Part shown: positions 11,322-15,207 of the stretch, in pieces
How the letters are laid out: every line of letters starts with the position of its first letter
Numbering within the stretch: position 1 is the stretch's first letter
Assembly: GCF_056712565.1 (NCBI RefSeq)
Contig: NZ_CM160072.1
Length of the DNA: 64,000 nt
Direction: 5' to 3' (one strand)
The notes under the pieces: generated by a model
Seen by the model: the letters and a program-made list of their open reading frames with translations, nothing else
Told to the model about the DNA's origin: nothing
Databases searched by the model: none
Translations under genes and position numbers: made by a program

Positions 11322-11759
11322 TCATCGAAGGCATTGCGTCCTGATGTACTCCTGCAGGTAGTTAACCTGCGCGGTTATCCTGTCGATTCCACTTCGGAGA
11401 CGGTAATAATTGAGTTCAGCATCTGCTGTAAGTCTTGGGTTTTCTCCATCGCCCATGCTGCTGGCTCCGGTCGTTGACTTTGCACAGGTGGCGGCGACTT
11501 GCAGGCGCTTACGCCCAGCAGAAACATCAGCACGGAGACTTTCGATAGTCGCGTTAGCATCAGCAAGCTCCTTTGTGTATCTTGCGTCGAGTTCTGCTAC
11601 ATCACGTTGACGCTTCCGCATATCAGCGATGATGGATGTGGCTTTATCGCGCTGCTCTTTGTAGGCGATTGCATTATCACGGTAATGATTAACAGCCCAT
11701 GACAGGCAGACGATGATGCAAATAATCAGAGCGGAGATAATCGCGGTGACTCTGCTCAT
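11322..11759 (-). CDS. Rz: Spanin inner-membrane subunit Rz
   Basis: 145-aa ORF with N-terminal TM segment and coiled-coil body; ATGA overlap with R stop. Confidence 0.85.
11375..11566 (-). CDS. Rz1: Spanin outer-membrane lipoprotein Rz1, embedded in Rz in a different frame
   Basis: ORF nested in Rz with signal peptide, lipobox (VSAC) and proline-rich stretch. Confidence 0.7.
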
Positions 11760-12232
11760 ACCTCAATCTCTCTGACCGTTCCGCCAGCCTCTTTGAATTT
11801 TGCAATCAGGTTGTCAGCCTTATGCTCGAACTGACCATAACCAGCGCCCGGCAGTGAAGCCCAGATATTGCTGCAACGGTCGATTGCCTGACGAATATCA
11901 CCGCGGTCAATCATCGGTAAAGCGCCACGCTCTTTAATCTGCTGCAATGCCACAGCGTCCTGACTTTTCGGAGAGAAGTCTTTCAGACCAAGCTGCTTAC
12001 GGTAGGCATCCCACCAACGGGAAAGAAGCTGGTAGCGTCCGGCGGCTGTTGATTTGAGTTTTGGGTTTAGCGTGACAAGCTTGCGAGGGTGATCGGAGTA
12101 ATCAGTAAATAGCTCTCCGCCTACAATGACGTCATAACCATGATTTCTGGTTTTCTGCCGTCCGTTATCAGTTCCCTCTGACCACGCCAGCATATCGAGG
12201 AACGCCTTACGTTGATTATTGATTTCCACCAT
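11756..12232 (-). CDS. R: Endolysin (lambda R-type lytic transglycosylase)
   Basis: 158-aa ORF matching recalled lambda R sequence and length. Confidence 0.9.
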
Positions 12233-12539
12233 CTTCTACTCCGGCTTTTTTAGCAGCGAAGCGTTTGATAAGCGAACCAATCGAGTCAGTACCGATGTAG
12301 CCGATGAACACGCTCGTTATATAAGCGAGATTGCTACTTAGTCCGGCGAAGTCGAGAAGGTCACGAATGAACCAGGCGATAATGGCGCACATCGTTGCGT
12401 CGATTACTGTTTTTGTAAACGCACCGCCATTATATCTGCCGCGAAGGTACGCCATTGCAAACGCAAGGATTGCCCCGATGCCTTGTTCCTTTGCCGCGAG
12501 AATGGCGGCTAACAGGTCATGTTTTTCTGGCATCTTCAT
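12216..12539 (-). CDS. S: Holin/antiholin (lambda S-type, dual start)
   Basis: 107-aa ORF beginning [22 protein letters not shown]..., near-identical to lambda S as recalled; GGGGG Shine-Dalgarno within upstream hairpin. Confidence 0.95.
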
Positions 12540-12664
12540 GTCTTACCCCCAATAAGGGGATTTGCTCTATTTAATTAGGAATAAGGTCGATTACTGATAG
12601 AACAAATCCAGGCTACTGTGTTTAGTAATCAGATTTGTTCGTGACCGATATGCACGGGCAAAAC

Positions 12665-12694
12665 GGCATGAGGTTGTTAGCGCAACCTCATGCC
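12665..12694 (-). terminator. Candidate tR'-like terminator between late promoter region and S
   Basis: 12-bp perfect stem (GGCATGAGGTTG/CAACCTCATGCC) with 6-nt loop, followed on minus strand by GTTTTG. Confidence 0.45.
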
Positions 12695-13135
12695 ACCCGC
12701 TTTCACGAAGGTCATGTGTAGAAGGCCGCAGCATAACTATCACTGATGAATTCAGGATAGCCAGTGGCTACGGCTCAGGTTGGGTTGTGGCGGTCGGTGC
12801 TGAACTCCGACTTAATGACGATAGGCGTGTACCGACGCCTCGTTTTACTTCCTCCGCTTTCACGGCTTCACCCTAGACCAGCTTTACGAAATCCTCGTAA
12901 ACCTAACCGCGGCAGATATGACCGGCACGGTGTGCCATATCACGGACCGGCGGGTGTCTCGTTCACCTGATTAACGCATCAGCCTGCGTATTCACCACAA
13001 CGATAAGAGTACTGCGCGGCACCTTTCACCAATTCCGCGAGGTCTGCGGGTTCAATGCTCTTACCTGTTGTGCAAACAAAAAAGCCACCGTTGCAACTTA
13101 AGAGTCACTAACGGCAGCTTACCTTCTAATTATGG

Positions 13136-13654
13136 CTAAATGGATAATTGCATGTCAAGGTTTTTAACAGCAACATGCTTAACTTTCTCAACACGTTTAC
13201 GCATTTTGAAAGCATTTTGCATTGGCTGGTATAAAACAAATAATGACGCTTTCAGGATGTCGTCAATTTCGTTTCTACAGGTTGCCAGTGAAGGTTTTCT
13301 CCATCCCTCGCCACCACGTCCACACATCTTGCGTGGCTTTGCAGTCGCGTGATAGTAGGATGCAATTGCTCGCTTAGATGAACCATGAGCGTAGTAGCTG
13401 AGGAGGATGCCAAAGGCTTTCTTGTCAATGTACATGACGGAATCAACGACCTGAGAAATCAACATTCCATCATCATCATTACACATTGGCCTTGTCATAA
13501 TTCTTCCCGGCTCTACGCTCTCCATGAACTTCGCTATTACGCTGCTCATGCGCTTTTCCAGACGACCTGAATAAACCCATGCGCCCCACAGTTCAAGCCA
13601 GCCATTCAGCCACTCGTGCTGCTCTTTGGTGAGGTTTAGTTCTCTTATGCTCAT
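13136..13654 (-). CDS. Q: Late antiterminator Q (phage 82/quuD-like family)
   Basis: 172-aa ORF with WGAW and CxDDD motifs recalled from Q82-type proteins; last gene before late region. Confidence 0.75.
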   Translation of the reverse strand: MSIRELNLTKEQHEWLNGWLELWGAWVYSGRLEKRMSSVIAKFMESVEPGRIMTRPMCNDDDGMLISQVVDSVMYIDKKAFGILLSYYAHGSSKRAIASYYHATAKPRKMCGRGGEGWRKPSLATCRNEIDDILKASLFVLYQPMQNAFKMRKRVEKVKHVAVKNLDMQLSI

Positions 13655-13839
13655 CGTCTTCCCCTCTTGCCTTGTTTGACCATCAGGACGCCGTTAACTA
13701 TTACGTGACGCTCGCCTTTGCTGTCTCGGTTGTACTTGAGCACTGTTCCTCTTGCGCAGGAAAGCATCCTCGCCACTTCGGTCTGATTGCCTCGTGTCTG
13801 GATAAGAAGCTCTGGTATCGTTTGAATTGTGGCGTTCAT
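13651..13839 (-). CDS. ninH: NinH
   Basis: 62-aa ORF with GNQTEVAR...RGTV motif matching recalled lambda NinH; overlaps Q start. Confidence 0.8.
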   Translation of the reverse strand: MNATIQTIPELLIQTRGNQTEVARMLSCARGTVLKYNRDSKGERHVIVNGVLMVKQGKRGRR

Positions 13840-14198
13840 GCGTTCTCCAGTTCGGTGATTTTTATTCCAAGCCGTCCGCCTGGTACTTTCACACCACGAA
13901 TTACGCGAATGTCATCGAATTGCTCGTCGTCTTCCGCAAATCCGGCGTGGATAAGGGAGTCGAGTAAACCTTTCAGGATGTTGTCGAGGTCGCGGCGGCG
14001 GGAGTCTGGAACGTCTGCGATGACTTTGATACGGAGTCGTGATTTGGTGAAAATGTCTAACTTGAGTTGGCGGATGATTTGCTGAACGTCTTTTCGGTAT
14101 TTCTGGCCTTTATCGCTTATGTAATATTGGCTTCCCCGTCTTCGCCAGTAGGTATTCACCGACGGCGGGTATGGAAGCACAAACTGATATTCGTTCAT
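13836..14198 (-). CDS. rusA: Holliday junction resolvase RusA
   Basis: 120-aa ORF with PPSxNxYxR, DxRRRDLDN and GGRL motifs of RusA. Confidence 0.85.
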   Translation of the reverse strand: MNEYQFVLPYPPSVNTYWRRRGSQYYISDKGQKYRKDVQQIIRQLKLDIFTKSRLRIKVIADVPDSRRRDLDNILKGLLDSLIHAGFAEDDEQFDDIRVIRGVKVPGGRLGIKITELENA

Positions 14199-14485
14199 GA
14201 CTTAATCTTCCCCTCCCTCAGCAGTATCGCCTGCGTTCTGATCACGCCTTCGAGGTGGTAAAGTCTGGCGTCTTTGTTGTCGAGATTATGGGTGCGTCGG
14301 TCGATTTCATCGTGACACGCACTACAAGCCCATGCACCGATCAGGTCGTCAGGCTTCATTCCCGTTCCGCAAATTCCAGCCATCCGGTAATGTGCCAGAA
14401 CTGTAGTTTCAGGGTTGCCATTGCATACGCCGTAAATACGTACCTGACATTCTCTTCCGCGCGCTTCTTTGCGTAGGTTAGCCAT
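14195..14485 (-). CDS. YbcO-like DUF1364 protein (putative nuclease)
   Basis: 96-aa ORF, Cys/His-rich, resembles recalled DLP12 YbcO; overlaps neighbours by 4 nt. Confidence 0.6.
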   Translation of the reverse strand: MANLRKEARGRECQVRIYGVCNGNPETTVLAHYRMAGICGTGMKPDDLIGAWACSACHDEIDRRTHNLDNKDARLYHLEGVIRTQAILLREGKIKS

Positions 14486-15207
14486 TAAGCAGCCTCCCCT
14501 GTTACTTTCAGCATTCCGTTATCGAGCAGCTTTCTGGTCAGCCACTGTTGACCACGCCCGGTGATTTTTGTGGTGAACGATATCTGTATTCCGTGATTTG
14601 TGTTGACCGCTGTTTCTTTCACTGTGAAATAGCCGCGATCCATATATTCCTGCATTGGCACATTGCGCCGGGAACCTGAAGCAATAAGGATTTTGTGATC
14701 ACGCATCCACGCAAACAGTTTGTTTTGACCAATACCAACAACCTTTGCAAAGTTTCCAATCAAAATTCCGCTGGCCTCGCCAACGCGATCGGCAAACTCA
14801 ACTTTAGGTGCGACAATTGCGAGCTGGTTTTCCAGTTGCATTTTCTGCTCAGCAAGATCGGCAGCAAGGCGCAACGCTTCCGGTAGCGTTTTGGGGATAT
14901 TAACCGCAGCTTCTTCAAGCTCTCGCCAGCGGTCAACAAGGCGAGCGGTGAACTCTGGCGACAACTGGGCAACAACGACAATACTGTCTCGCTTACCTTG
15001 TTCGCCCTCGAAGACGTAATGCTCGTACTGAACATTGAACCCTAAGTTATTGATTCTTTCGGAAACCTCAATTTGAGGAAGCCGGATAACACCATTTTTA
15101 GCCAGCGTTTCGATGGTACGTTTCACATTGTCATGACGCTTACCAACCAACTCAGCAATTTCAATGCTTGTCATTTTGATGGCATTGCCATTCATTAACT
15201 CATTCAT
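14485..15207 (-). CDS. Rha-family regulator / antirepressor-like protein
   Basis: 240-aa ORF; N-terminus MTSIEIAELVGKRHDNVKRTIE is a typical Rha domain. Confidence 0.75.
   Translation of the reverse strand: MNELMNGNAIKMTSIEIAELVGKRHDNVKRTIETLAKNGVIRLPQIEVSERINNLGFNVQYEHYVFEGEQGKRDSIVVVAQLSPEFTARLVDRWRELEEAAVNIPKTLPEALRLAADLAEQKMQLENQLAIVAPKVEFADRVGEASGILIGNFAKVVGIGQNKLFAWMRDHKILIASGSRRNVPMQEYMDRGYFTVKETAVNTNHGIQISFTTKITGRGQQWLTRKLLDNGMLKVTGEAA

Follow-up and report, generated by a model that had tools for sequence, protein, structure and literature searches.

We analysed a window of 64,000 nucleotides (nt) from contig NZ_CM160072.1 (assembly GCF_056712565.1) that carries a lambdoid prophage, and concentrated on the spacer between its antiterminator gene Q and its holin gene S, in which we found a structured RNA resembling a transfer RNA (tRNA) that we refer to as Element 2. 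All coordinates are those of the window, and all features described lie on the minus strand unless stated otherwise. The spacer comprises 596 base pairs (bp; 12540-13135) and is embedded in late genes on the minus strand that follow the lambdoid order Q, holin S, R and Rz. The Q gene (13136-13654; 172 amino acids) is of the phage-21 type (PF06530, E = 1.6e-25) and 100% identical to the annotated Q of prophage CUS-3; its homologue in Sf6 is annotated as similar to phage 21 Q. The holin gene (12216-12539) is of the lambda S107/S105 type (PF05106, E = 2.4e-30) and is annotated as S in CUS-3. The entire spacer is 100% identical to that of CUS-3 from Escherichia coli K1 strain RS218, and the same identity was found in many chromosomes of E. 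coli, among them those of UTI89, S88 and IHE3034. Judged by these matches, the prophage in the window is CUS-3. Since the spacer is 100% identical but the nutL region (21220-21650) only 97% identical to the CUS-3 record, with 93% coverage, it appears to be a CUS-3 variant with mosaic differences.

Few pieces of phage DNA have been studied as thoroughly as the interval that separates Q from the lysis genes in lambdoid phages, and this interval is known to harbour Shiga toxin (Stx) genes and tRNAs. An initial annotation of the spacer had regarded it as this cargo slot of lambdoid late operons, holding neither a credible coding sequence nor a tRNA, and both statements stood up to our analyses. 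Sf6-type relatives hold tRNA-Asn and tRNA-Thr in the slot, and the tests for coding capacity described below were negative. ARAGORN detected no tRNA in the window, nor in CUS-3, Huey, IME10, lambda or HK75; the tRNAs that it reported were confined to the Sf6-type cassette. A search of Rfam 15, the route by which the initial annotation had hoped to recognize a structured RNA, gave no match in 11500-14500 up to E = 10, tRNA models included, and at the gathering score the whole window was likewise without a match. The family to which the structured RNA of the spacer belongs is absent from Rfam.

Element 2 (12784-13001) was recognized by its fold and by its matches to a covariance model of this family, termed R1, as a family member with a long insert. 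It is closed by helix P1, formed by 12993-13001 and 12784-12792. The 5' strand of this helix is followed by an AAU linker (12990-12992), by helix P2 (12985-12989 paired with 12974-12978) with the loop GGCUGA at 12979-12984, by a variable domain of 162 nt (12812-12973), and by helix P3 (12807-12811 paired with 12793-12797) with the loop AGUUCAGCA at 12798-12806, which abuts the 3' strand of P1. In the minimum-energy fold of Element 2 the structure is closed by P1, and P2 and P3 are formed. All parts of the family consensus, including the UCAGC in the P3 loop, are present at 12784-13001. R1 matched the window at 12999-12926 (39.7 bits, E = 1e-8) and at 12875-12786 (28.5 bits, E = 1e-5). The length of the middle domain of Element 2, 162 nt, accounts for this detection in two halves. 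The 3' tail after P1 reads ACCC, and in the window Element 2 is without a terminator of its own. At both ends the variable domain agrees with the corresponding domain of another contig, but the centres differ, so that the mosaicism is nested, with one cassette inside another.

Relatives of Element 2 were collected by searching viral contigs with the 5' motif, and at least 120 contigs from many environments were retrieved. Among the matches listed, 127 of 145 occurrences had the strand complementary to the 5' flank 60-420 nt downstream and adjoining a perfect 5-bp hairpin, whereas we estimate that such P1/P3 pairing should arise by chance about 0.02 times per occurrence. The search placed no requirement on the loop of P3, which was nonetheless AGAUCAGCA or closely similar to it in the great majority of the matches listed. 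The resulting consensus consists of P1, AAU, P2 (GCGCA-GGCUGA-UGCGC), the variable domain, P3 (GCCGG-AGAUCAGCA-CCGGC) and the other strand of P1. Throughout the family the closing helix has at least 7 bp and the middle domain is hypervariable, ranging from 31 to about 300 nt: 150 distinct middle domains fell into 121 clusters, 104 of them singletons, with a few recurring and seemingly structured sequences. The CUS-3 type and two of its relatives share the loops GGCUGA in the 5' hairpin and AG(U/A)UCAGCA (AGWUCAGCA) in the 3' hairpin, and their stems covary. R1 was built from a seed of 31 sequences without the E. coli lambdoid members, and it also recovered divergent copies, for example in Pseudomonas phage P52 (35 bits). 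A consensus-like member had no match in Rfam 15, and we found no description of the family in Rfam 15, in the annotation of the listed records or in the searchable full-text literature, where the motif sequences were included in the search. While the promoter-terminator module and the S leader described below were already known, the tRNA-like family is new to the sources searched.

The paired regions of the family are maintained by compensatory change. In the 31-sequence seed, 98.1% of the cells were paired and 45 changes affected both sides of a pair, compared with 9.0 ± 2.2 in shuffled alignments (reached in 0 of 500 shuffles); 9 pairs showed compensatory change, and controls with slid pairing partners were only 26-49% paired (25-56% over both alignments). 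In an independent set of 79 R1 hits, taken from 75 species-representative bacterial genomes with an exact 22-mer of the family, 97.7% of the cells were paired and 84 changes affected both sides, compared with 17.4 ± 3.2 after shuffling (again 0 of 500). All five P3 pairs covary in this second set, and the three inner, most conserved positions of P1 vary only through G-U pairs, with zero unpaired cells, which fits an RNA encoded on the transcribed strand. The members of the seed had been picked partly by their P1 and P3 pairing, and the 79-hit alignment was fitted to R1; alignment freedom can nonetheless not create the covariation, since both strands of P1 are held in register by adjacent invariant motifs. 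Hence the conserved structure in homologous phages, on which the initial annotation had let its proposal of a non-coding RNA depend, does exist. The two loops contain five complementary bases, GCUGA and UCAGC, and 98.7% of the cells in the seed could pair. Covariation between the two loops is absent, since the search itself had fixed the 5' loop, and two extra scans for variant 3' loops found no compensation. Pairing of the conserved loops into an elbow is therefore put forward here as a hypothesis.

With a 61-nt core of the family, BLAST retrieved at least 258 phage records (76 from Klebsiella, 61 from Pseudomonas, 54 from Escherichia, and others) and matches in 1352 of 5426 complete E. coli genomes, with 859 places on plasmids. 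The exact 22-mer was present in 75 species-representative genomes, which comprise Gamma-, Beta- and Alphaproteobacteria, one genome of the Magnetococcia, and metagenome-assembled genomes labelled as Verrucomicrobiota and Phycisphaerales. At the family sites in the records listed, the annotation consists of nothing, of hypothetical proteins or of the plp gene of phage P1. Upstream of family members we found three unrelated Q families (PF03589, PF06530 and PF06323), and downstream three holin families. Moreover, tRNA genes lie within 1.5 kb of 17 of the 101 distinct elements, all on the same strand and several spaced by 5-14 nt. Such neighbours were seen, for instance, in phage D3 and in a Pseudomonas phage where the element is succeeded by tRNA-Asn, tRNA-Thr and the lysis genes, in that order. 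In phage P1, a dicF-like region, tRNA-Asn and tRNA-Thr precede two copies of the element, which belong to the C1-controlled ban operon; on the plus strand of the AF234172 locus, R1 located these copies at 1502-1599 (71 bits) and, in a divergent form, at 1763-1882 (26.5 bits). Both copies overlap predicted open reading frames (ORFs) on the opposite, minus strand, plp and upl, which may be mis-annotations.

This distribution bears on two explanations that do without an RNA acting in trans. The first is that we are dealing with DNA-level boundary sequences for recombination during lambdoid module exchange, with the RNA structure being incidental. The flanks are indeed annotated as bsq3 and bsq4 in CUS-3, and the slot is mosaic, with conserved flanks and interiors that are swapped, even in a nested manner. 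However, mere boundaries would not be expected to have helices that covary with pairing kept, G-U pairs on the transcribed strand with zero unpaired cells at those positions, or an orientation that is always that of the flanking tRNAs and late genes; the family moreover extends beyond lambdoid Q-S junctions to phage P1 and to tRNA arrays. We consider this explanation quite improbable. The second is that the whole leader acts in cis, protecting the transcript from Rho or RNases, providing back-up terminators and keeping holin and endolysin off in lysogens. In line with this possibility, the full-length leader RNA has more structure than its shuffled versions (z = -5.05), its S-proximal 115 nt are nearly invariant, and terminator-like hairpins are more frequent around family members (31 of 97 downstream, 20 of 97 upstream) than in control windows (8 of 113). 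A purely cis-acting leader seems unlikely to us all the same, as homologues of Element 2 occur in tRNA arrays and in the ban operon of phage P1 with no lysis gene after them, and generic structure needs no near-invariant loops.

The likeness of Element 2 to a tRNA lies in its architecture. As in the acceptor/T-stem stack of a tRNA, P1 (UGUGGUG/CGCCACA) abuts P3 (GUCGG/CCGAC) without a linker, and the same holds across the family. A hairpin of the size of a D arm follows P1 after a short linker, and the insert is placed where the anticodon arm and the variable loop would be. On the other hand, ARAGORN and Rfam recognized no cloverleaf with an anticodon arm in Element 2, and its loops GGCUGA and AGUUCAGCA are neither a canonical D loop (G18 G19) nor a canonical T loop (UUCRANY). 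A conserved 3' CCA after P1 was not found in the family either; CCA is present in 11 of the 101 members. From the minihelix geometry and the tRNA-like spacing in arrays, it can be surmised that these RNAs would be substrates of RNase P and of tRNA processing.

Several known RNAs are informative for comparison. The tRNA genes ileZ-argN-argO are located in the late operons of Stx phages. The slot, strand and flanks of Element 2 are those of late-operon tRNAs, with which it also shares a stack of 7 + 5 bp like an acceptor/T minihelix; it differs from them in having no anticodon arm, no canonical loops and no CCA, and in the variable domain of the family. For Sf6 and phage L, late operons with such tRNA genes at their 5' end have been described (PMC8022706). 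A non-coding RNA in the same Q-to-holin interval, as exchangeable cargo, is likewise found in the case of PasA/C/D, STnc100 and AgvB; these RNAs are short, have their own terminator and act by seed pairing, unlike Element 2, which in this window lacks a terminator of its own. PasA/C/D and STnc100 are small RNAs of the Hfq type from Stx-like prophages, where they lie in the interval from Q to the lysis genes (bioRxiv 10.64898/2026.05.13.724894). The Rfam models of STnc100, AgvB and AsxR found no match here, and those of 6S RNA, of ribozymes, of the transfer-messenger RNA (tmRNA) and of YrlA found none in 11500-14500 up to E = 10. Stable RNAs that resemble tRNAs include the tRNA-like domain of tmRNA, the bacterial YrlA Y RNAs, the MHV68 TMERs and engineered 'tRNA scaffolds'. 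Together with the species 1 and 2 RNAs of T4 (rnaC and rnaD), they parallel the family in having a tRNA-shaped top half, a non-tRNA insert and a location beside tRNAs, but the elbow loops of the family are GGCUGA and AGWUCAGCA and not G18G19 and T-psi-C. T4 rnaC lies inside a tRNA cluster and ends in the T-arm GGGUUCGAAUCCC and an acceptor strand. Kinship with rnaC and rnaD was rejected on the grounds that R1 had no match in the T4 tRNA region, which leaves rnaC as an analogue in layout only. We also rejected a reading of the CUGAUG motif as part of a hammerhead or other ribozyme, because inspection showed the A9 and GAAA core positions to be missing and Rfam gave no match.

To place Element 2 among its alternatives in the slot between the late terminator and the S leader, we used the conserved beginning of the S leader, CTGAGCCGTAGCCACTG, as an anchor and surveyed 127 sequences, 120 of them viral contigs and the remainder reference phages. 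The slot held tRNA-Asn plus tRNA-Thr in 55 sequences, a lambda-type insert in 28, an HK75-type insert with canonical D and T arms in 14, the CUS-3 type in 14, and two shorter relatives of the CUS-3 type in 12 and 3 sequences, respectively. All inserts are located between identical flanks, the terminator on one side and the S-leader anchor on the other. The non-tRNA types are each closed by a 7-bp helix, the 3' strand of which ends at the position of the tRNA-Thr 3' end. This helix reads UGUGGUG/CGCCACA in the window, UGUGGUG/CACCACA in one relative and UGUGCUG/CAGCACA in lambda, the differences being compensatory. In the lambda genome (NC_001416, about 44.86-44.95 kb, between tR' and S) the closing helix and the AAU linker are kept, while both conserved hairpin loops are missing, and this stretch seems to be the remnant of the same cassette after decay. 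HK75 encodes in this slot (about 1634-1770) a 133-nt RNA with the same closing helix and a 75-nt insert, and its arms are canonical (D arm GCUC-AAUGGC-GAGC, T arm GCCGG-UUCGAUU-CCGGC). The only match of the HK75-type cassette in Rfam was a weak one to the 3' end of tmRNA (12.4 bits). R1 detected neither the lambda-type nor the HK75-type cassette, and both can be regarded as putative relatives on account of their position and the shared closing helix only.

Upstream of Element 2 the slot contains a second structured segment, Element 1 (12996-13072), a long hairpin with the closing stem CACAAC.AGG.UAAGAGCA / UGCUCUU.UC.GUUGUG and a variable apex (-29.3 kcal/mol, z = -2.9). The closing stem is conserved in lambda and other phages, and at least 10 different apex sequences have been swapped into it. 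In some phages, represented by three homologues, the apex is a canonical T-arm, GCGGUUCGAUUCCGC, directly 5' of the closing strand, which suggests that Element 1 is also tRNA-derived. The last 6 nt of Element 1 (GUUGUG, 12996-13001) are at the same time the start of helix P1 of Element 2. They can pair either with CACAAC at 13067-13072 in Element 1 or with the CACAAC contained in 12784-12792 in Element 2, and these two pairings are mutually exclusive.

The variety of inserts raises the question whether Elements 1 and 2 are merely tRNA pseudogenes that decay, without a function, in a slot made for tRNAs. They occupy exactly the slot of tRNA-Asn and tRNA-Thr, the HK75 type retains canonical D and T arms, T-arms occur in some apices of Element 1, and the lambda-type version, which is missed by R1, has a degenerate appearance. 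Yet the core of Element 2 is conserved, through compensatory changes, across hundreds of gamma-, beta- and alphaproteobacterial phages, its loops are not those of a tRNA but are near-invariant, and pairing of 97-98% is not what would be expected of pseudogenes. This makes a pseudogene origin devoid of function decidedly unlikely.

The promoter-proximal end of the spacer can be assigned by homology. A putative late promoter PR' (13129-13158), which overlaps the end of Q, consists of TTGACA, a spacing of 18 nt and CATAAT (11 of 12 consensus positions) and departs at a single base from the pR' annotated in Sf6 and HK75; according to the Sf6 record, the Sf6 promoter is 'nearly identical to phage 21 late promoter'. 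Directly 3' of PR' follows a terminator-like structure (13075-13118) with a 35-nt hairpin (13084-13118; -20.2 kcal/mol, z = -4.4) and the tail U6-G-U3 (13075-13083). The 64-bp block at the 5' end of the spacer differs by one base from the annotated pR', qut and tR' of Sf6 and HK75, the Sf6 record likens its tR' to the phage 21 late terminator, and in the alignment the tR' of lambda itself is found at the same relative position. By this homology the hairpin with its U6 run at 13075-13118 is the real tR', and the functions of PR' and tR' are inferred from the same comparison. The arrangement predicts that lysogens would contain a short leader RNA of about 45 nt with its 3' end near 13078, which would correspond to lambda 6S RNA and to StxS. 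The latter is a short PR'-tR' RNA of lambdoid phages, known from Stx phages (PMC7547250), and the arrangement in the window is alike in combining a constitutive promoter with an immediate terminator that gives a short RNA in lysogens; compared with 6S RNA and StxS, the RNA predicted here from the sequence is only about 45 nt long.

The initial annotation had instead drawn attention to a perfect 12-bp stem further downstream, which it took for a candidate tR', and had suggested that the spacer could encode a late-promoter-proximal 6S-like RNA or another small RNA. The stem itself was confirmed: GGCATGAGGTTG (12665-12676) and CAACCTCATGCC (12683-12694) are complementary at 12 of 12 positions and enclose a loop of 6 nt. 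With its flanks it folds with -27.9 kcal/mol (z = -5.6; 0 of 200 shuffles fold as well), and we estimate the chance expectation of a perfect 12-bp hairpin in 600 nt at about 3e-4. The strength of the hairpin, the GUUUUG that follows it, and the fact that the hairpin is kept in every homologue examined would suit a tR' at this place, with the roughly 450 nt from PR' to the stem as a terminated 6S-like RNA. Nevertheless, we regard this model as very improbable. The tR' annotated in Sf6 and HK75 aligns to 13075-13118, where a better terminator directly follows PR', whereas the stem is about 430 nt from PR' and hence not just downstream of the promoter and Q-loading site. Lambda has both structures, and its copy of the stem lies well downstream of its tR' position. 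In addition, a run of at least five U directly after a G+C-rich hairpin is missing at the stem, which has only four U and was for this reason not picked up by the terminator scan, and its U-run is flanked by CGGG/CCCG, which pair around it. With the true tR' at 13075-13118, any 6S-like transcript from PR' to tR' would thus measure about 45 nt, and its 3' end would lie some 390 nt before the stem. All in all, the observation made in the initial annotation was confirmed and its interpretation was partly supported.

Comparative folding did not validate the 12-bp stem, since neither RNAalifold nor pair counting found a compensatory pair in 66 distinct S leaders, and RNAalifold did not choose the full stem. 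The stem is perfect in a minority of these 66 homologues, most having one to three mismatches; pair 5 is unpaired in 46 of them. Covariation of the stem was absent from this set, in which 89.6% of the cells were paired, a value matched by 392 of 500 shuffles. Judging from these homologues, the perfect stem of the window is just one allele. Positions 12684, 12685 and 12690 in its 5' arm and position 12669 are hypervariable among otherwise near-identical leaders, with T, A and G as alternatives at 12690; these positions do not covary with their partners, and the changes mostly make mismatches. The 12-bp stem is a conserved hairpin of the lambda-type S leader, and it may serve as a back-up terminator or as a structural element of the mRNA that limits leaky holin expression. 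Tandem late terminators were reportedly described for lambda by Luk and Szybalski in 1983, which is not used as evidence here.

The lambda-type 5' leader of S extends from 12540 to 12780, corresponds to 'bsq3' of CUS-3, whose span extends five bases further 5', and is near-identical in lambda, Sf6, HK75 and IME10. Besides the 12-bp stem it contains hairpin A (12725-12774, z = -6.7), hairpin C (12600-12640, z = -5.0) and, just before the two S start codons, the stem-loop CCCCUUAUUGGGGG (12545-12561). The near-invariance of the last 115 nt was seen across the same 66 homologues. We take the stem-loop to correspond to the lambda sdi element, which is reported to set the ratio of the S107 and S105 start codons (Blasi et al., 1989), so that the likeness to the lambda leader includes an sdi-type stem-loop. 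In the literature searched we found no function described for the upstream hairpins of the S leader, including the 12-bp stem.

None of the ORFs in the spacer appears convincingly coding, in agreement with the non-coding character that the initial annotation had ascribed to the region. That one or more small proteins are encoded here might be suspected from two hypothetical coding sequences annotated in phage Huey and from a 50-codon ORF (12591-12743; 50 amino acids) that matches phrog_22751 with E = 1.4e-29. The variable sites of this ORF are, however, spread over the codon positions as 11/13/12, without a third-position bias, and among the 66 distinct homologues its start codon is lost in 4 and the ORF is intact in 57 and not intact in 9. 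An ORF of 68 amino acids on the plus strand runs antisense inside the hypervariable RNA domain, and neither this one nor an ORF of 31 amino acids had a PHROG match. We give hardly any credence to a protein-coding role of the spacer, and the match to phrog_22751 most likely arose because conserved leader DNA without coding function has been annotated repeatedly.

Based on the present data, we consider it probable that the 596-bp spacer serves the late operon of CUS-3 as its untranslated leader and is composed of three exchangeable modules, with Element 2 as a tRNA-like RNA that is processed from it. The first module (13075-13158) would comprise the phage-21-type PR', the Q-loading and pause region and tR'. 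From homology and established Q biology, it is expected to yield only the terminated RNA of about 45 nt in a lysogen, and after induction Q would permit RNA polymerase to read through tR'. The second module would be a slot for non-coding-RNA cassettes, which in CUS-3 holds the tRNA-derived or tRNA-like Elements 1 and 2 and in sister phages tRNA-Asn and tRNA-Thr. Element 2 would be transcribed only with the late operon, as would its counterparts in phage P1 with the C1-controlled ban operon, and would be excised from the long transcript by the tRNA-processing machinery, with RNase P acting at the 5' end and trimming at the 3' end. The excised RNA could then accumulate as a stable tRNA-shaped molecule, the conserved top half of which may be a recognition or effector surface and the variable domain a phage-specific payload. 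The third module would be the lambda-type S leader with its conserved hairpins, including the 12-bp stem and the stem-loop at the start codons. A processed, stable, tRNA-like late RNA is our best guess for Element 2.

Several points weigh against this proposal. What we have established are the anatomy, homology, covariation, context and distribution of the element, whereas every function is inferred. Element 2 fails the tests for a genuine tRNA (ARAGORN, Rfam, anticodon arm, D and T loops, CCA), and the copy in the window is atypical with its 162-nt middle domain, which R1 could match only in two halves. The use of the 5' motif as a query accounts in part for its apparent invariance, and the elbow pairing GCUGA/UCAGC amounts to complementarity plus conservation, given that the variants AGAUAAGCA and AGACCAGCA are not compensated in the 5' loop. 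Near-unique middle domains fit a neutral spacer as well as a payload. Lastly, about one third of the members are followed by a terminator-like hairpin, so that some may be stand-alone or leader-terminal RNAs that are not processed.

A possible extension of this proposal, which we offer tentatively, is that Element 2 represents a new and widespread class of phage tRNA mimics with tRNA-like maturation, made with the late or derepressed transcripts, in which the conserved top half engages a conserved host or defence factor or, alternatively, acts as a natural 'tRNA scaffold' stabilizing a hypervariable effector RNA specific to the phage, and of which lambda retains only a decayed relic. Candidate partners would be toxins that modify tRNA ends, RNase P, or factors that bind at the factor-binding site of the ribosome, and contact would be made at the acceptor/elbow region. 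The family is present in the model phages P1, HK620, D3 and PY54 and in a quarter of the complete E. coli genomes, which suggests that the Q-to-lysis interval commonly carries a conserved tRNA-shaped RNA that annotation pipelines do not report. It is a candidate for a new phage RNA function during late infection, be it in translation, in tRNA metabolism or in counter-defence. In lambda, the enigmatic spacer between tR' and S would be explained as what remains of a slot for tRNA or tRNA-like cassettes. For the annotation of such phages, the position of tR' is corrected relative to the initial annotation, and 'hypothetical protein' ORFs over family sites become doubtful, probably including plp and upl of phage P1.

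Elsewhere in the window, R1 had a weak match on the plus strand at 21399-21506 (12.8 bits, E = 0.19). This segment contains a P3-like hairpin with the loop AGAUAAGCA and corresponds by homology to part of the leftward early operon, its nutL/boxA leader (nutL-N); the match may be due to chance.

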